Of a stretch of DNA of 25,446 bases, positions 12,502 to 19,756 are shown piece after piece; position 1 is the first letter of the stretch, and each line of letters opens with the position of its first letter. A program made the translations under genes and the position numbers. Source of the DNA: Candidatus Iainarchaeum sp. (lineage in GTDB: Archaea; Iainarchaeota; Iainarchaeia; JAADDC01). The stretch spans positions 1 through 25,446 of the forward strand of contig JAADDC010000063.1 in NCBI GenBank assembly GCA_013154145.1. Reading direction: 5' to 3'. The notes beneath the pieces were generated by a model. It saw only the letters and a program-made list of their open reading frames with translations. It had not been told where the DNA came from and made no database searches.

Positions 12502-12741
12502 ATGGCCAGCAAGAAGCGTTCTATTCTGGACCACGTTTTTGTGCCCAAGGCGAGGATTCTCTCCAAGGAAGAGGTGGAAGAGGTACTCAGGAAGTACAGG
12601 GTGAGCAAGGAGAACCTTCCCAAAATCCTTGAGACCGACCCGGTGGTTGTGGAACTCGGGGCGAAGAAGGGGGACGTCATCGAGTTCATTAGAAACTCCC
12701 CCGTGGCGGGGAAGAGCATCTATTACCGCGTGGTGATATGA
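12502..12741 (+). CDS. rpoH: RNA polymerase subunit Rpo5 (H)
   Basis: ILDHVFVPKARILS...LPKILETDPVV...GDVIEFIRNSPVAG...YYRVV; ATG 12502 preferred over GTG 12496. Confidence 0.97.
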   Translation: MASKKRSILDHVFVPKARILSKEEVEEVLRKYRVSKENLPKILETDPVVVELGAKKGDVIEFIRNSPVAGKSIYYRVVI

Positions 12742-14210
12742 TGGGCTACTGGGAGCTGGTAGACGCCTACTTCAGGCAGGAGACCCTCGTGAGTCAGCAG
12801 ATCGATTCTTACAACCAGTTCGTGGAGGAGCGCATACCCGAGATCATAGAGGAGCACTCCGTCATCGACCCCGAGGTGGGGGACCTGGTCATCGAGGTGA
12901 AGGGCTATCACATAGAGCGACCTTATATGCAAGAAATAGACGGTGCCCACAGGCGCCTCTACCCCATGGAGGCCAGGATCAGGAACCGCAGCTACATGGC
13001 GCCCATCTACCTGGACATGATTGCCATCAGGAGGAACGTGGAGATACAGAGGGCGCGAATAAGGATTGGCGAGATCCCCGTGATGGTCAAGTCCACCCTC
13101 TGCTGGCTGAACGGGCTCTCCCCCAAGGAGCTGGTGGCCCTCGGGGAGGACCCCCTTGACTTCGGCGGCTACTTCATCATCAACGGCGTCGAGAAGGCCC
13201 TCGTGGCCCACGACGAGCCGGCCCCCAACAAGATCATGGTCTCACGGGCCGACGAACAAAAGACGAAGATCATCGCCCAGGTCTTCTCCCGGAGGGGCGC
13301 CTACACGGGGAAGACCATGGTCATCAGGCGAAAGGACGGCATCTGGAACGTTTCCTTCCCCTCCGTGCTCCAGATCCGCTGGACGGTTCTCATGAGGGCC
13401 CTGGGCTTCACGGACGATCAGGAGATCCTGGACGCCCTCATCGGGGAGAAGGAAGTGGTCAACGACGTGCTCCTCAACCTCGAGCAGTCGGAGGTTAAAA
13501 CAGAGGAAGAGGCCCTGGAGATGATAGGTAGAATTGTGGCGCCCGGCCAGATCAGGGAGTACCAGCTCAGGAGGGCCCAGGAGGTCATTGACAACTTCCT
13601 GCTTCCCCACATAGGGACCCAGCCCGAGCACCGCAAGGCCAAGGGCTACTTCCTCATCCGCATGGCCGAGCGCACCTCCGAAGTTTACTACAACCTCCGT
13701 CCTGTGGACGACAAGGATCACCTGGCCAACAAGCGGATAGAGCTTGCGGGCCGCCTCATGGAGACCCTCTTCGTCTTCGCCCTGAGGGCCCTCATCAGGG
13801 ACATCAGGTTCCAGGTGGAGAGGGCCCTGGCCAGGAGGAAGAGGATCAGGCTCCAGACCATCGTGAGGCCCGGTGCCTTCACGGACGCCGTCTACTTCGC
13901 CATGAACACGGGCACCTGGCCCAACAGGAGGACCGGCGTTTCCCAGATCCTCAACAGGACCAACTTCATCGCCCCCATCTACGAGCTCAACAGGGTCAAG
14001 TCCCCCCTCTCCAAGAAGCGAAAGAACTTCGAGGCGAGGGAAGTGCACGGCACCCACTTCGGCCGCTTCTGCCCCATACAAACACCCGAGGGTCAGTCCT
14101 GTGGTCTCGTTAAGTACTTCGCCCTGATGGCCCGCACCACCACGGCCGACGACCCCGAGAGGATTGAAAGGCTCCTGAGAAAGCTTGGTGTCACGACGGT
14201 GGTAGGATGA
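12738..14210 (+). CDS. rpoB'': RNA polymerase subunit Rpo2N (B'')
   Basis: QIDSYNQF, YPMEARIRN..Y.AP, GEIPVMVKS, EDPLDFGGYFIING, DDKDHLANKRIELAG, HGTHFGRFCP..TPEG..CGLVK. Confidence 0.97.
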   Translation: MMGYWELVDAYFRQETLVSQQIDSYNQFVEERIPEIIEEHSVIDPEVGDLVIEVKGYHIERPYMQEIDGAHRRLYPMEARIRNRSYMAPIYLDMIAIRRNVEIQRARIRIGEIPVMVKSTLCWLNGLSPKELVALGEDPLDFGGYFIINGVEKALVAHDEPAPNKIMVSRADEQKTKIIAQVFSRRGAYTGKTMVIRRKDGIWNVSFPSVLQIRWTVLMRALGFTDDQEILDALIGEKEVVNDVLLNLEQSEVKTEEEALEMIGRIVAPGQIREYQLRRAQEVIDNFLLPHIGTQPEHRKAKGYFLIRMAERTSEVYYNLRPVDDKDHLANKRIELAGRLMETLFVFALRALIRDIRFQVERALARRKRIRLQTIVRPGAFTDAVYFAMNTGTWPNRRTGVSQILNRTNFIAPIYELNRVKSPLSKKRKNFEAREVHGTHFGRFCPIQTPEGQSCGLVKYFALMARTTTADDPERIERLLRKLGVTTVVG

Positions 14211-16021
14211 AGGAGGCGAAGGTCTACGTCAACGGTAGGCTCCTGGGCTTCCACCCCGAGCCCAAGAAGCTCGTGGAAGAGCTTCGAAAGAGGAGGAGGA
14301 GTGGTCAGATTCCTCCCTTCGTGTCCGTCACCTACTACGAGAACACCAACGAGGTTTACGTCTACACGGACGCCGGCAGACTGTCCCGTCCCCTCATCGT
14401 CGTCAAGAACGGCAAGCCCCTCCTCACCAAGACCCACCTGAAGATGATCAGGGAGGGGAAGCTCAAGTGGAGCGATCTAGTAAAACAAGGTATCATCGAG
14501 TACCTTGACCCCGAGGAGGAGGAGAACGCGTACATAGCCGTCTCCGAGGAGGAGCTCACCCCCGAGCACACTCACCTGGAGATTCACCCGGCCATCGTCC
14601 TGGGCTTCGGCGTGAACCTCATCCCCTGGCCCGAGAAGAACCTCACCACGAGGCTGCTCCACGGCGCCAAGATGGGCGACCAAGGCCTCGGCCTCTACGC
14701 CTCCAACTTCAGGATCCGCACGGATACCATGAGTTACGTCCTCTACTACCCCCAGAAGCCCATAGTGAGGACCCGGGTCTTCAAGTACGCCCACCTGGAC
14801 CGCCGGCCCTATGGCCAGAACATCGTGGTGGCGGTGATCCCCTACGAGGGCTACAACATGATGGACGCCATCATCATGAACAAGGACTCCATCGAGAGGG
14901 CCCTCTTCAGGGCCGTGTTCTTCAGGACCTACGAGGCGGTGGAGAGGAGGTACCCCGGCGGCCAGAGGGACCGCTTCGAGATACCCGACGAGAGCGTGAG
15001 CGGATACCTGGGAGAGGAGGCCTACCACGCCCTCGGCGAGGACGGCATCGCCATCCCCGAGACGAAGGTCAAGGGCGGTGACGCGCTGGTGGGAAGGACG
15101 TCTCCGCCAAGGTTCTTGGAGGACGTGGCCCACTTCGGCATCATGGAAGAACGGAGGAGGGAGAACTCCGTCCTCGTGAGGCCCGACGAGGAGGGCTACG
15201 TGGACACGGTGATGATCACCTCCGACGAGAACGGCCACAGGCTGGTGAAGATAAAGCTAAGGCAGGAGAAGATCCCCGAGATCGGCGACAAGTTCACGGC
15301 GAGGATGGGCCAGAAGGGTGTCATCGGCATGATCGTGCCCCAGGAGGACATGCCCTTCACGCCCCAGGGCGTGGTCCCTGACCTCATCTTCAACTCCCAC
15401 GCATTCATCTCGAGGATGACCGTCTCCTACGTCCTGGAGATCCTCGGCGCCAAGGCCGCCGCCCTGGAGGGCTGGGAGGAAGTGGACGCCACCATGGGCG
15501 AGGGCATGGACGCCGAGGACTTTGAGAAGGTTTTGAGGGCCCACGGATTCAGGAAGACGGGCAAGGAGATCCTCTATGATGGAAAGAGCGGCGAGGAGAT
15601 CGAGGCCGATATCTTCATCGGTCCCATTTACTATCTCCGGCTCAAGCACCTGGTGTCCCAGAAGTACCAGGCGAGGGCCAGGGGCCCCGTCCAGATACTC
15701 ACCCGGCAGCCCACGGAGGGGAGGTCCAGGGAGGGTGGCATCCGCTTCGGCGAGATGGAGAGGGACACCCTCATCGGCCACGGCGCCGCCCTCACCCTCT
15801 ACGAGAGGCTCGTGGAGGAGTCCGACAAGACCACCATACTCGTCTGTGAGAAGTGTGGCAACATCGGCGTGGACGACGCCATCAGGAAGAAGCGCTACTG
15901 TCCCGTCTGTGGATCCACGAAGGTCCACGAGGTGGACGTGTCCTACGCCTTCAAGCTGCTCCTGGATGAGCTCAAGTCGCTGGGCATATACCCCAAGCTA
16001 AAACTCAAGGACAAGGCGTGA
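14207..16021 (+). CDS. rpoB': RNA polymerase subunit Rpo2C (B')
   Basis: TDAGRLSRPL, EYLDPEEEEN, THLEIHP, GYNMMDA, GDKF..R.GQKG, DMPFT, SRMT, RGPVQILTRQPTEGRSREGGIRFGEMERD, C-terminal zinc ribbon and YAFKLLLDEL. Confidence 0.98.
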   Translation: MKEAKVYVNGRLLGFHPEPKKLVEELRKRRRSGQIPPFVSVTYYENTNEVYVYTDAGRLSRPLIVVKNGKPLLTKTHLKMIREGKLKWSDLVKQGIIEYLDPEEEENAYIAVSEEELTPEHTHLEIHPAIVLGFGVNLIPWPEKNLTTRLLHGAKMGDQGLGLYASNFRIRTDTMSYVLYYPQKPIVRTRVFKYAHLDRRPYGQNIVVAVIPYEGYNMMDAIIMNKDSIERALFRAVFFRTYEAVERRYPGGQRDRFEIPDESVSGYLGEEAYHALGEDGIAIPETKVKGGDALVGRTSPPRFLEDVAHFGIMEERRRENSVLVRPDEEGYVDTVMITSDENGHRLVKIKLRQEKIPEIGDKFTARMGQKGVIGMIVPQEDMPFTPQGVVPDLIFNSHAFISRMTVSYVLEILGAKAAALEGWEEVDATMGEGMDAEDFEKVLRAHGFRKTGKEILYDGKSGEEIEADIFIGPIYYLRLKHLVSQKYQARARGPVQILTRQPTEGRSREGGIRFGEMERDTLIGHGAALTLYERLVEESDKTTILVCEKCGNIGVDDAIRKKRYCPVCGSTKVHEVDVSYAFKLLLDELKSLGIYPKLKLKDKA

Positions 16022-16025
16022 GAGC

Positions 16026-18659
16026 ATGGTGAGGAAGAAGACCATAGGGGCCATCGAGTTTGGCATACTCTCCCCGGACATGATTAGAAAGATGAGCACC
16101 GTGGAGGTCACTGTCCCCGAGACCTACGACGCCGACGGCTTCCCCGTGGAAGGGGGCCTCATGGACCCGAGGATGGGCGTCGTGGACCCCGGGCTGAGGT
16201 GCAAGACCTGTGGCCAGAAGATGAACAAGTGTCCGGGCCACTTTGGCAGGATAGAGCTGGTGAGGCCCGTCATCCACACCGAGTACATCAAGTACGTGGA
16301 GGGCTTCCTGCAGGCCACCTGCGCCAAGTGTGGCAGGCTCGTCTTCTCCGACGAGACCATCGAGAAGGTCAAGAAGAAGTACCCGCCCAAGATGAGGTTC
16401 AAGTACTTCGTGAAGAAGGGGGCGGAGGTGCGGAAGTGTCCCCACTGTGGCTACGAGAGGCCCAAGATCAAGTTCGAGAAGCCCTACAACTTCTTCGAGA
16501 TCACCGGGGAGGAGGAGAAGAAGATATGGCCCACGGAGATCCGCGAGCGCTTCGAGCGCATCCCCGACAAGGACGTGGAGGCCATGGGCTTCAACCCCAA
16601 CAAGTTTAGGCCCGAGTGGCTCATCCTCACGGTCCTTCCCGTTCCGCCCGTCACCATTAGACCTTCCATCATCCTCGAGACCGGCGAGAGGGCCGAGGAC
16701 GACCTCACCCACAAGCTGGCGGACATCGTCTACACCAACCAGCGCCTGAAGGAGAACATCGACGCCGGCGCTCCCCAGCTCATCATCGAGGACCTCTGGG
16801 ACCTGCTCCAGTATCACGTGACCACCTTCTTCAACAACGAGGCCCCCGGCGTTCCGCCCTCCCGGCACCGCTCCGGCAGGCCCCTCAAGACCCTCGTCCA
16901 GAGACTTAAAGGTAAGGAGGGCCGCTTCCGCTACAACCTCTCCGGAAAGAGGGTGAACTTCGCCGGGAGGACCGTCATCTCCCCTGACATCAAGATCTCC
17001 GTGGGAGAGGTGGGCGTTCCCCAGATCATGGCCGAGGAGATCACCGTCCCCGTCCACGTCACCGAGTGGAACATCGACGAAGTGAAGGAGTACATCAAGC
17101 GGGACGAGTACCCGAGGGCCCTCTACATCATAAGGCCCAACGGCACCCGGAAGCGCATCACGCCCGACAACAGGGAGGACATACTGGAGGAGCTCGCCCC
17201 CGGTTACATCGTGGAGAGGCAGGTGGTGGACGGCGACATCGCCCTCTTCAACAGGCAGCCCTCCCTCCACAGGGTTTCTCTCATGGCCCACAGGGTGAGG
17301 GTGCTCCCCGGCCGCACCCTCAGGATCAATCCCCTGGCAAACAAGCCCTACAACGCCGACTTCGACGGCGACGAGATGAACATACACTTCGTCCAGACGA
17401 AGGACGCCCAGACCGAGTCGAGAGAACTAGTGGCCGTCAAGTACAACATGATTTCTCCCCGCCACGGGAGGATACTGGTCACCGCCGACGAGGACGCCCT
17501 CACGGGCATGTTCCTCCTCACGTGGAAGGACACGAAGCTCACGAAGGAGCAGGCCGCCGAGCTCCTCTACGCCATCGGCATAACGGAGCTCCCGGAGCCC
17601 GACGAGGACGGCCTCATATCCGGCAAGAAGATCTTCTCTATGCTCCTGCCCAAGGACATGAACATCGAGTTCCCCACCAAGCTCTGCGAGTACGCCAAGA
17701 AGTTTGGCTACTGCGAGGACTGCCGCAACTGTGACCTGGAGACCTACGTGGTCATCAAGGACGGGGAGCTGCTGAAGGGCGTCATAGACGAGGAGGCCAT
17801 AGGCACCAAGGGCAAGATCATCCACTACATCTACAGGGTTTACGGGCCCGAGGAGGCCGAGCGCTTCGTCAACCGCATCGGCATACTCTCCACCATGGCC
17901 ATCAAGATGCTGGGCTTCACCATCTCCTACGAGGAGCTCAAGATCGACGAGGAGACCAAGAAGAAGATCGAGCAGATCATCGAGGAGGGCGAGAAGAAGG
18001 CCCTCGAGTACATAGAGCTCTACAAGAAGGGCAAGCTGGAGCCCATACCCGGCTTCTCCGAGGAGGAGAGCCTCGAGCTTTACATCATCCAGTCCCTGGA
18101 GGAGGCCAGGAAGAAGGTGACGGCCATCGTGGTGAAGGAGAAGTTCGAGGACTTCCTCAAGAACCCGGCCACCGCCCAGGGCTTCGTGATGATCATCTCC
18201 GGTGCCCGTGGTAAGGTCTCCAACATCATCAACCTGGTGGCCTTCCAGGGACAGGCCTACGTCAGGGAGAAGCGTCCCCACAGGGGCTTCATGGGGAGGG
18301 TGACCGCCCACTTCAAGCCCGGGGACATCTCCCCCAGGGCCAGGGGCTTCGTGAAGCGCTCCCTCAGGGAGGGCCTCGGCATGCTGGACATCTTCTTCTG
18401 GGGCATGGGCGGCAGGATCGGAGAGGTGGACAAGGGTGTGTCCACCCAGATCTCCGGCTACTACTACAGGCGCCTCTCCAACGCCCTCATGGACGTCATC
18501 GTCTTCCCCGACGGCACCCTCAGGGAGGTCACCAACGACGCCCTCATCGCCTACCGCTTCGGCGACGACGGCATGAACCCCATGGCGGCCCTCGACGGAA
18601 AGCTGCCCCTGGATATCCTCTACGCCAAGATGAAAAAGCTGAAGGGTGAGAAGAAATGA
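16026..18659 (+). CDS. rpoA': RNA polymerase subunit Rpo1N (A')
   Basis: CKTCG...CPGHFG, RLKGKEGRFRYNLSGKRVNF, FNRQPSLHRVS, catalytic YNADFDGDEMN (17349-17372), bridge-helix region near 18390-18490. Confidence 0.98.
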   Translation: MVRKKTIGAIEFGILSPDMIRKMSTVEVTVPETYDADGFPVEGGLMDPRMGVVDPGLRCKTCGQKMNKCPGHFGRIELVRPVIHTEYIKYVEGFLQATCAKCGRLVFSDETIEKVKKKYPPKMRFKYFVKKGAEVRKCPHCGYERPKIKFEKPYNFFEITGEEEKKIWPTEIRERFERIPDKDVEAMGFNPNKFRPEWLILTVLPVPPVTIRPSIILETGERAEDDLTHKLADIVYTNQRLKENIDAGAPQLIIEDLWDLLQYHVTTFFNNEAPGVPPSRHRSGRPLKTLVQRLKGKEGRFRYNLSGKRVNFAGRTVISPDIKISVGEVGVPQIMAEEITVPVHVTEWNIDEVKEYIKRDEYPRALYIIRPNGTRKRITPDNREDILEELAPGYIVERQVVDGDIALFNRQPSLHRVSLMAHRVRVLPGRTLRINPLANKPYNADFDGDEMNIHFVQTKDAQTESRELVAVKYNMISPRHGRILVTADEDALTGMFLLTWKDTKLTKEQAAELLYAIGITELPEPDEDGLISGKKIFSMLLPKDMNIEFPTKLCEYAKKFGYCEDCRNCDLETYVVIKDGELLKGVIDEEAIGTKGKIIHYIYRVYGPEEAERFVNRIGILSTMAIKMLGFTISYEELKIDEETKKKIEQIIEEGEKKALEYIELYKKGKLEPIPGFSEEESLELYIIQSLEEARKKVTAIVVKEKFEDFLKNPATAQGFVMIISGARGKVSNIINLVAFQGQAYVREKRPHRGFMGRVTAHFKPGDISPRARGFVKRSLREGLGMLDIFFWGMGGRIGEVDKGVSTQISGYYYRRLSNALMDVIVFPDGTLREVTNDALIAYRFGDDGMNPMAALDGKLPLDILYAKMKKLKGEKK

Positions 18660-19756
18660 CGCTCCCCGAGTACATAAAGGAGTACGTGGCCGAGTGGGCC
18701 AAGGAAAGGGGCTTAAAGAAAAAGGAGATCGAGGAGTTCCTCAAGTTCCTGGAGGAGTACATAAGGGAGAATGCCGTGGACCCCTGGGAGGCCATAGGCA
18801 TCGTCACGGCCCAGTCCCTGGGTGAGCCCGCAACCCAGGCAACCCTCAGGACCTTCCACATGGCCGGATCGGCCGAGGTCTCCGTGGCGTCGGGTATGGA
18901 CCGCATCCTGGAGATTGTAGATGGGTTGAAGAAGATCCAGACCCCCGTCATGTACGTTTACCTCAACCCGCCCTACAACAAGGACGAGGAGAAGGCCCGG
19001 GAGTTCGCCCGCTCCCTGGAGGAGATCATCGTCTCGGACATCGCCGTGGTGAAGGAGGACTTCGTGAAGAAGACCATCACCATCGTCTTCAACAAGAAGG
19101 AGATCGAGCGCAGGGGCGTGGACATCAAGGCGGTGATCAAGAAGATCGAGGGGAAGGTGAAGGGGAGCTTCGACGAGAAGAAGTACGTCTACAAGATACA
19201 GCTGCCCAAGGACATGCCCCTCATGAAGATGCGCAAACTGGCCCAGTCCCTCGAAAGGTTGCAGATCTCTGGCCTGAAGGGCATAAAGAGGGCGCTGGTG
19301 AAGAAGGAGGGCGACGAGTTCATCATCACCACCTCCGGCACCAACCTCAAGGCGATATTAAAGAAGAAGGAGGTGGACCACACCAGGACCTACTCCAACA
19401 ACATACACGAGGTGGCGGAGGTTCTGGGCATAGAGGCGGCCCGCTACCTCATCATAGAGGAGCTCTACAAGGCCTACATGGGTGCAAAGCTCCTGGTTGA
19501 CAAGCGACACCTGGCCCTGGTAGCCGACGCCATGACCGCCCGGGGGGTCATCACCCCCATCGGAAGGACGGGCATAGCCGGCCGCAAGGGCTCCGTCCTC
19601 GCCAGGGCTGCCTTCGAGGAGACCAACAAGCACCTGGTGGAGGCCAGCGCCTGGAACGAGGTTGACCATTTAAAGGGTATCGTGGAGAATCTAATCGTTG
19701 GTCTGCCCATCAAGGCAGGCACGGGCAGGGTCAAGCTGAAGATGAAGCTCAGGTGA
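18656..19756 (+). CDS. rpoA'': RNA polymerase subunit Rpo1C (A'')
   Basis: EAIGIVTAQSLGEPATQ.TLRTFH.AG, TP.M.VYL, NNIHEVAEVLGIEAAR, RHLALVADAMT, SVLARAAFEE, VENLIVG. Confidence 0.97.
   Translation: MTLPEYIKEYVAEWAKERGLKKKEIEEFLKFLEEYIRENAVDPWEAIGIVTAQSLGEPATQATLRTFHMAGSAEVSVASGMDRILEIVDGLKKIQTPVMYVYLNPPYNKDEEKAREFARSLEEIIVSDIAVVKEDFVKKTITIVFNKKEIERRGVDIKAVIKKIEGKVKGSFDEKKYVYKIQLPKDMPLMKMRKLAQSLERLQISGLKGIKRALVKKEGDEFIITTSGTNLKAILKKKEVDHTRTYSNNIHEVAEVLGIEAARYLIIEELYKAYMGAKLLVDKRHLALVADAMTARGVITPIGRTGIAGRKGSVLARAAFEETNKHLVEASAWNEVDHLKGIVENLIVGLPIKAGTGRVKLKMKLR

Follow-up and report, generated by a model that had tools for sequence, protein, structure and literature searches.

A fixed, extensively substituted RNA polymerase bridge helix and trigger loop in a family of the Iainarchaeota

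The RNA polymerase (RNAP) genes of Candidatus Iainarchaeum sp. (assembly GCA_013154145.1, contig JAADDC010000063.1) encode an active centre that departs from the canonical one at many positions, and the question is whether this signifies a different catalytic mechanism or a variant of the usual one. The window analysed is the whole stretch of 25,446 nucleotides, and all features described below lie on its + strand. The gene rpo1N (RNAP subunit A', 877 aa) occupies positions 16026-18659 and rpo1C (subunit A'', 366 aa) positions 18656-19756; translation of the window places the rpo1C start over the rpo1N stop in an ATGA at 18656-18659. The largest-subunit matches have E-values of 1.5e-278 to P. 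furiosus Rpo1N (8cro_A) and 4.4e-88 to 4qiw_C. Rpb1 domains 1-5 (PF04997, PF00623, PF04983, PF05000, PF04998) are present in relatives, and PF04998 matches both the Rpo1N and the Rpo1C genes of the window. The split subunit B (rpo2N and rpo2C, 12738-16021), several of whose active-centre motifs are altered, lies upstream. The frames are intact and the operon has the order rpoH-B''-B'-A'-A'', which is standard and recurs at the P. furiosus, F. placidus and M. fervens loci. Domain order, the NADFDGD motif and a split that falls immediately behind the bridge helix, within the operon, identify a split-form archaeal RNAP largest subunit. The catalytic loop NADFDGD (Rpo1N residues 443-449, window 17352-17372) is intact, as originally predicted; the segment continues to 17396, with NIHFVQ in place of the canonical N(L/M)HVPQ. 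There is one match to rpo1N in the window's genome, and these are working genes for the sole RNAP of a tiny-genome DPANN-type archaeon. The window's protein composition looks hyperthermophilic, and the sample names of relatives suggest a hydrothermal origin.

The bridge helix (FFWGMGGRIGEVDKGVSTQISGYYYRRL; Rpo1N residues 790-817, window 18393-18476) was placed by a gap-free HMMER alignment to P. furiosus Rpo1N (8cro_A) and differs from the Pyrococcus helix at 11 of 28 residues. Numbered as in M. jannaschii, they are H806W, A807G, E812I, L814E, T817K, A818G, R820S, A822Q, Q823I, M827Y and Q828Y. The helix thus departs from the canonical archaeal/eukaryotic consensus at near-invariant positions; 9 of the 26 positions that are invariant among 111 canonical archaeal sequences differ, although Methanococcales, Thermococcales and Hadarchaea are over-represented in that reference set. 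The hinges M-G-G (M808, G809-G810) and S-G (S824-G825) are kept, as are D816, T821, Y826, R829 and R830. Hinge glycines and nucleic-acid contacts are preserved. The altered residues point towards the trigger loop, the F-loop and fork loop 3: R820S, Q823I, M827Y, Q828Y and T817K lie on the face that packs against the trigger loop, and H806W, A807G, E812I and L814E belong to the N-terminal end, next to the F-loop and fork loop 3. In an AlphaFold2 model of Rpo1N alone (30-sequence alignment), pLDDT is below 50 across residues 797-834. In M. jannaschii, A822Q is tolerated (PMC2776397), Q823I by itself causes substantial loss of function, and G809 and G810 are intolerant of substitution (PMC2988716). 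A helix carrying Q823I would therefore need a compensating context in this family.

Alignment of the trigger loop to GEPSTQMTLNTFHYAG of Thermococcus and Pyrococcus requires no gaps. Its N-terminal arm (GEPATQATLRTFHMAG; Rpo1C residues 56-71, window 18821-18868) has Ala at the position of yeast Rpb1 M1079 and keeps the equivalents of Q1078, L1081 and H1085 as Gln, Leu and His, so that the original prediction was accurate on these residues. Three more changes, absent from that prediction, are F1086M, V1089S and P1099D (GLPR to GMDR; window 18869-18916); the tip and C-terminal arm (SAEVSVASGMDRILEI) has Ser at V1089 and Asp for the hinge Pro. The rare changes are the Ala at the M1079 position, which occurs in none of 96 diverse trigger loops, and the Asp at the P1099 position. 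The replacement of Asn by Arg at the N1082 position, which the original prediction did not mention, was also considered as an unusual or bacterial-like feature and was rejected, as Sulfolobus normally has Arg there (TQMTLRTFHFAG); Arg is also normal in bacteria. In yeast, M1079 occupies a hydrophobic pocket with bridge-helix residues I837 and L841; variants of P1099, F1086 and V1089 are mostly loss-of-function, and pocket variants mostly gain-of-function (PMC5127505). In the query family, the Ala at 1079 is paired with a Tyr at the I837 position. Across the two elements about a dozen normally fixed residues are rewritten.

Elements that adjoin the helix and loop are changed as well. The F-loop/anchor segment directly before the bridge helix (KRSLREGLGMLDI; window 18354-18392) has Met for M. 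jannaschii P800 and Leu for Y794. Fork loop 3 (D-loop II) of Rpo2N, as the motif is defined in PMC8204694, reads FCPIQTPEGQSCGLVKY (window 14067-14117) against the canonical CPxETPEGxxCGLVKN; its changes, Glu to Gln and Asn to Tyr, are common to family f2. The metal-B motif of Rpo2C is YNMMD (window 14852-14866) rather than YNMED, with the Asp kept, and none of the 24 phylum genomes read has the Glu. Other Rpo2 active-centre motifs have TRLLH for PRNTY, ARMGQKG for SRHGQKG and NSHAFISRMT for NPHAIPSRMT. In E. coli, catalysis, translocation and pausing are reported to change when the contacts that the helix makes with the second-largest subunit are disrupted (PMC3959191).

The window comes from a fragmented MAG (76 contigs, 81% complete), and errors of assembly or binning, or decaying genes, had to be considered. 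The same helix and loop sequences are present in all 11 family relatives read, which come from different samples, and the same peptides recur in independent MAGs with GC contents of 45-60%. Among these 11 genomes, 19 of 28 bridge-helix codons and 11 of 16 trigger-loop codons vary only synonymously. In 21 family proteins the helix is identical or nearly so, at full-length identities of 62-91% and with identity in the C-terminal region (residues 600-877) falling to 53%. The new version of helix and loop is fixed and under strong purifying selection in the query family. Recurrence in 11 genomes with mostly synonymous codon differences, together with the intact, single-copy genes in a standard operon, rules out an assembly error, which had been named as a possible refutation, and a pseudogene; the probability left to an artefact is negligible.

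The strong substitution of helix and loop relative to cultured archaea and eukaryotes, as first noted from the sequence, was borne out by translation and gap-free alignment. The proposed check of its distribution gave a different picture outside the cultured lineages. The phylum (215 species) has its own fixed variant, RQGEVDTGVSTKVSGYLYRRL with TQLTLRTKH, common to about 35 of its families, and in many other DPANN-like lineages 7-16 of 26 bridge-helix positions depart from the canonical set. The occurrence of such substitutions across many archaeal lineages, also named beforehand as a refutation, is thus borne out in part. The sequence of family f4 is in between that of the query family and the phylum variant, and by sequence the query-family variant is the outer layer of a graded series. 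A maximum-likelihood tree of Rpo2C leaves f1 + f2, f4, the outgroups and f3 + core unresolved, so f4 is not claimed as a direct intermediate. In the same tree Rpo2C of the query family is not on a long branch, which argues that the changes are not part of a runaway divergence of the whole enzyme. At 112 universal positions (invariant in canonical archaea and in at least 90% of eukaryotic representatives) the query differs at 13 and the phylum core at 16; the query family is therefore not exceptional within its phylum. The bridge helix was also tried as a hotspot of change and rejected (2 of 9 universal helix positions versus 11 of 103 others, Fisher p = 0.28). The literature searched yielded no paper on how the bridge helix varies in Micrarchaeota or Iainarchaeota.

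Co-evolved retuning of the active centre, rather than new chemistry, is the most likely explanation of these changes. More specifically, we lean slightly towards the view that bridge helix, trigger loop and fork loop 3 were remodelled together, as a module whose changes compensate each other. The proposed sequence of effects is as follows. The substituted faces of the helix would be matched by partner changes in the trigger loop (M1079A, F1086M, V1089S, P1099D), in the F-loop (Pro to Met) and in fork loop 3 (Glu to Gln and Asn to Tyr). The remodelled module would shift the balance between open and closed trigger loop and the kinking of the helix, and this shift may alter the set-points of rate, pausing and backtracking. 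The two-metal chemistry would stay unchanged. The partner changes do co-occur with those of the helix, and the residues that are indispensable in M. jannaschii and yeast mutant scans are all kept, including the trigger-loop Gln, Leu and His and NADFDGD. Mutual contacts among the substituted residues are predicted if the changes form a module; physical compensation and any kinetic consequence are inferred. Helix position 827 and loop position 1079 are, however, paired inconsistently elsewhere (Leu with Gly in families f3 and f6, Ala with Lys in f2), and as the helix is not significantly enriched for changes, the apparent module may simply be diffuse divergence of a conserved core.

The family-specific layer (Q812I, T817K, V823I, L827Y and H806W relative to the phylum consensus) could alternatively have stabilised an already divergent helix against heat upon a move to hot vents. 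Most family-specific changes are indeed towards Ile, Tyr, Trp and Lys, and the RNAP subunits of the family equal those of Pyrococcus and Methanocaldococcus in IVYWREL content, with the phylum core and f4 lower. The proteins of the window have an IVYWREL fraction of 0.463, which corresponds to roughly 99 °C by the formula of Zeldovich et al. Canonical hyperthermophiles nevertheless retain the canonical helix, and K822Q runs in the opposite direction. Nottebaum and Weinzierl argued likewise from Ignicoccus versus Nanoarchaeum (PMC8204694), and thermoadaptation is a rather improbable account of the family layer.

Retuning might instead have been driven by the absence of the cleavage factor TFS. 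The TFS/TFIIS zinc ribbon (PF01096) was found in none of 16 genomes of the order, none of 133 phylum genomes of at least 85% completeness and none of 58 high-quality phylum genomes, but in four of four archaeal control genomes. TIGR01384 gave no match above cut-off in 90 genomes, and its weak matches are other zinc-ribbon proteins. The phylum thus lacks a TFS/TFIIS-type zinc ribbon at the sensitivity of profile searches, which a very divergent factor could escape, and a non-homologous cleavage factor is also possible. A 2018 review places TFS in all archaea but M. kandleri (PMC7289017), and the literature searched held no paper on its absence in DPANN. Modelled on the Gre-less cyanobacterial RNAP, the helix and loop would have been reshaped for less backtracking or more intrinsic cleavage, with the family-specific layer as a further step. 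Lineage-specific loop and helix residues of the cyanobacterial enzyme raise hydrolysis 3-11 fold in E. coli RNAP (PMC7026648), and in our alignment of the two helices the cyanobacterial N792D aligns with M. jannaschii Q823. N. equitans has TFS, yet its active centre is radically changed, so such divergence does not require loss of the factor. The family-specific changes arose inside a phylum that lacks TFS throughout and are therefore not tied to a loss event, and without the metal-B Glu cleavage would if anything be slightly weaker (bioRxiv 10.1101/2024.06.20.599782). Adaptive compensation for the missing factor is accordingly doubtful as an explanation of the family's changes. A broader proposal may be put forward tentatively: the whole phylum (about 215 species) might possess a cleavage-factor-independent RNAP, with TFS and the metal-B Glu lost and helix and loop refitted so as to deal with backtracking or proofreading in another way, of which the query hot-vent family would be the most derived, heat-adapted form. 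If so, the RNAP of this phylum would be the archaeal counterpart of the Gre-less cyanobacterial enzyme.

Nothing points to the natural variant of the catalytic mechanism that was originally proposed; all residues with a known essential role in mechanics or chemistry are retained. Speed, pausing or factor dependence may be altered, and factor dependence is a reasonable question given the apparent phylum-wide lack of TFS. Near-invariance of the archaeal bridge helix holds for cultured lineages only, which corrects an earlier assumption. Knowledge of these elements rests on single mutants in three or four model enzymes; the query family offers about eleven helix changes and at least four loop changes that natural selection has combined. 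Because some of these changes are individually damaging in the models (Q823I in M. jannaschii, and in yeast most P1099 variants), the family provides an existing test case for epistasis in the active centre. The phylum-wide absence of TFS, if confirmed, contradicts its reported presence in all archaea but M. kandleri, and together with the absent metal-B Glu would open experiments on how an archaeal RNAP copes without a cleavage factor.

Compared with the canonical Rpo1N/Rpo1C of P. furiosus (8CRO), T. kodakarensis (4QIW) and Sulfolobus (2WAQ/2PMZ), the query has the same domain order and split point, 49-52% full-length identity, NADFDGD, both hinges and the loop Gln, Leu and His, and it shares the Arg at N1082 with Sulfolobus. 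It differs in 11 of 28 helix residues, in M1079A, F1086M, V1089S and P1099D of the loop, and in HFVQ for HVPQ. Some of the same single changes have been made in M. jannaschii (Tan et al. 2008; Weinzierl 2010), where A822Q was tolerated and Q823I lost function; those mutants carry single changes in a canonical background, whereas here about eleven co-occur naturally with altered partners. The Gre-less cyanobacterial RNAP (Riaz-Bradley et al. 2020, PMC7026648) is bacterial and has an SI3 insertion, and compensation is experimental there and hypothetical here. The closest precedent, named in the original prediction and present in the literature, is the N. equitans RNAP, which has comparably radical changes and is active in vitro, with unusual ionic requirements (fluoride) (Nottebaum and Weinzierl 2021, PMC8204694). 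It too belongs to a tiny-genome DPANN hyperthermophile, is substituted in helix, loop, fork loop 3 and metal-B at otherwise fixed positions, has lost one metal-B acid and has the fork loop 3 Asn (their N460) replaced, although the positions changed in fork loop 3 overlap only in part. N. equitans has Pro at A822 and a loop Pro, whereas the query family has Gln at A822 (STQISGY) and lacks proline in the helix; other DPANN-like proteins carry the Pro form RTPKSGY. The set W806, I812, E814, K817, I823 and Y827 is not reported for N. equitans, and N. equitans encodes TFS, which was not found in the query's phylum. As related tiny archaea often show rewiring of this kind and a precedent has been published, the active centre described here is a new variant of a known oddity and not a new mechanism.

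The window carries an archaeal transcription/translation operon of standard layout: rpoH, a split rpoB (12738-14210 and 14207-16021), rpo1N and rpo1C, followed by genes for L30e, NusA-KH, S12, S7, EF-2 and EF-1alpha. Rpo1N (877 aa; 16026-18659) and Rpo1C (366 aa; 18656-19756) match solved subunits from Pyrococcus and Thermococcus end to end (E-values: 1.5e-278 and 4.4e-88, respectively). The genome is a MAG of 543 kb at 81% completeness, in which rpo1N occurs once. The make-up of its proteins points to a hyperthermophile, with an IVYWREL fraction of 0.463, an index that would correspond to ~99 C. In one family with the phylum core variant, an 82-aa ORF that is conserved and has no match in Pfam lies between rpo2C and rpo1N (L090 8753-9001; L091 4444-4692). 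The window has no counterpart of this ORF, and its rpo2C-rpo1N gap is 4 bases.

The bridge helix of Rpo1N reads FFWGMGGRIGEVDKGVSTQISGYYYRRL (18393-18476) and the trigger loop of Rpo1C reads GEPATQATLRTFHMAG (18821-18868). Translation and alignment to the Pyrococcus/Thermococcus subunits bear out the original prediction of a radically substituted helix and an altered loop. Relative to P. furiosus, the helix changes are H806W, A807G, E812I, L814E, T817K, A818G, R820S, A822Q, Q823I, M827Y and Q828Y (M. jannaschii numbering). Helix residues M808-G809-G810, D816, T821, S824-G825, Y826, R829 and R830 are kept. The loop has the predicted Ala at the Rpb1 M1079 equivalent and three changes that had been overlooked, F1086M, V1089S and P1099D (GLPR to GMDR). 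As also predicted, the loop Gln, Leu and His (Q1078, L1081 and H1085 equivalents) are present and the NADFDGD motif of Rpo1N (17352-17372) is intact. The Arg at the N1082 position was ruled out as an oddity, as Sulfolobus has TQMTLRTFHFAG. Just after the catalytic loop, HVPQ is changed to HFVQ (17379-17396; Rpo1N 452-457); the sister genus has HFLQ and the phylum core retains HVPQ.

The same helix is found in 21 proteins of this family, which have 62-91% full-length identity to the query and as little as 53% over residues 600-877. Among them the helix varies only at 806 (W/M/L), 812 (I/M/L), 824 (S/T) and in a few Gly/Ala or Val/Ile exchanges. In 11 family genomes with GC contents from 45% to 60%, variation is synonymous only at 19 of 28 helix codons and 11 of 16 loop codons, and residue-changing at two and three, respectively. 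Because helix and loop recur in all 11 genomes with mostly synonymous codon differences, assembly error, which had been raised as a possible source of the substitutions, is ruled out, and the same pattern shows that purifying selection acts on the new helix/loop state. L099, a locus from the same genus as the window, differs from it by ~15 points in rpoB-region GC (45% versus 60%) and has an identical bridge-helix peptide.

The phylum comprises 215 species genomes in one class, with Rpo1N found in 196, and helix and loop were read in ~35 families. In almost all sampled families the pair is the phylum core, with helix (F/Y)HSMGGRQGEVDTGVSTKVSGYLYRRLANSLKD and loop GEPGTQLTLRTKH(Y/F)AG...SGIQRVEEI, itself well away from the canonical pair. 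Family f4 is in between (helix RQGEVDKSVSTQESGYLYRRL; loop TQLTLRTFHFAG), and families f3 and f6 have the helix GGRIGEIE...SGYLQRQ. Family f2, from the same order as the query's family, is much more derived: its helix, FFMAMPSRTSEINKGLTTAETGYAERRS, is without the Gly-Gly hinge (L046 and L102; genome G014), and its branch is very long (~1.3-1.5 changes per site in Rpo2C). The residue equivalent to Rpb1 F1084 is Lys in the core trigger loop (TLRTKH; L031-L089); across 96 diverse trigger loops it was never Lys (90 F, 4 V, one Y and one L). Outside the phylum, many DPANN-like representatives of a 50%-identity library are off canonical at 7-16 of 26 helix positions, including DKG types and the proline-bearing RTPKSGY type of Nanoarchaeota. 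NPAKTGY sequences, with Pro in place of Thr, also occur among the helices read. The near-invariance that the original prediction ascribed to the archaeal helix is thus confined to Euryarchaeota, TACK and Asgard lineages, and its caveat that such substitutions might be common across archaea is partly borne out by the DPANN-like lineages.

Is the helix itself a hotspot? The comparison used 112 positions that never vary among canonical archaea and that at least 90% of 96 eukaryotic representatives share. Of these the query differs at 13, the phylum core (P0048, its representative sequence) at 16, a Nanoarchaeota-like fused protein at 9, a crenarchaeal sequence at 1 and Pyrococcus at none. Of the query's 13 differences, 2 fall among the 9 helix positions and 11 among the other 103 (Fisher p = 0.28), and the helix was rejected as a statistical hotspot. 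Unlike that of f2, the Rpo2C branch of this family is not long. The lack of helix enrichment and the ordinary branch mark the query's changes as part of a moderate divergence across the whole active centre, as is typical of the phylum; a helix-specific burst and runaway decay were both rejected on these grounds. Rpo2C has PRNTY to TRLLH (14648-14674), SRHGQKG to ARMGQKG with loss of the His (15299-15319) and NPHAIPSRMT to NSHAFISRMT with loss of both Pro residues (15392-15421). The metal-B motif YNMED is YNMMD (14852-14866; Rpo2C 216-220). All 24 phylum genomes read have lost this Glu (to Leu in most; Met, Thr, Gln, Lys, Ala, Ser or Asp elsewhere) and kept the Asp. In E. coli, the second magnesium used in transcript cleavage is probably liganded by the Asp, not the Glu, and Glu substitutions are milder (bioRxiv 10.1101/2024.06.20.599782).

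In M. jannaschii, every substitution of G809 or G810 cripples the enzyme and Q823I by itself causes substantial loss of function (PMC2988716); A822Q is tolerated (PMC2776397). Tan et al. define a helix face away from the catalytic centre and towards the loop (PMC2776397), on which 817, 823 and 827 are changed. In the closed state, Rpb1 K830, the counterpart of residue 820, touches V1094 of the loop; in the open state, M1079 lies in a hydrophobic pocket to which helix I837 and L841 contribute. In yeast, variants of the pocket gain function and most variants of P1099, F1086 and V1089 lose it (PMC5127505). The equivalents of M1079, I837 and P1099 in this family are Ala, Tyr and Asp. The N-terminal end of the helix (806, 807, 812 and 814) adjoins the F-loop and the D-loop II/fork loop 3 of the second-largest subunit (PMC2988716). 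The changes there are W806, G807, I812 and E814; the F-loop of the query is altered (Pro to Met, Tyr to Leu), as is fork loop 3, FCPIQTPEGQSCGLVKY (14067-14117; Rpo2N 444-460), whose Glu to Gln and Asn to Tyr changes are common only to this family and f2. In E. coli, broken contacts between helix and beta subunit make catalysis faster and translocation slower and blunt pausing (PMC3959191). We lean slightly towards reading the changes as a co-evolved retuning in which helix, trigger loop and fork loop 3 would act as one mechanical module, through physical contacts that we infer. A predicted model of Rpo1N alone has pLDDT <50 over residues 797-834 and is uninformative there.

An alternative, drawn from Gre-less cyanobacterial RNAP, in which loop and helix residues make up for the missing factors (PMC7026648), is that the remodelling might compensate for absent TFS. 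A 2018 review places TFS in all archaea except M. kandleri (PMC7289017), and we found no mention of its absence from DPANN in the literature searched. The TFS/TFIIS zinc ribbon (PF01096) was detected in 4 of 4 archaeal control genomes, in none of 16 genomes of the order and in none of 133 phylum genomes at least 85% complete (the window's genome counted), and TIGR01384 exceeded its cut-off in none of 90. Its weak matches are either ribbons of the eS31 type or small ORFs with one ribbon. Two of 93-102 aa, L105 (G184:C10:46997-47173) and L107 (G044:C41:25146-25331), have a single N-terminal zinc ribbon weakly matching the first half of the TFS model, with no C-terminal ribbon; these could be TFS remnants or unrelated. 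The undetected TFS ribbon invites the cyanobacterial analogy, but N. equitans has TFS and a radical active centre all the same (PMC8204694), and any loss of TFS across the phylum long predates the family-specific layer. We regard such compensation as unlikely and prefer retuning of one module. The variant is a useful entry point to the TFS question, and a natural epistasis experiment.

The original prediction had proposed a natural variant of the catalytic mechanism. The helix glycines, NADFDGD and the loop residues Gln, Leu and His are all kept, and there is no evidence for a different mechanism; what the family has is a genuine variant of a known oddity, specific to its lineage and under selection. 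The precedent cited for it, N. equitans RNAP, exists and is the closest described case: substitutions affect its helix, loop, fork loop 3 and metal-B motif alike, and the enzyme works in vitro, where it has an unusual need for fluoride (PMC8204694). With an apparent absence of TFS added, the family described here displays the same syndrome in other residues.
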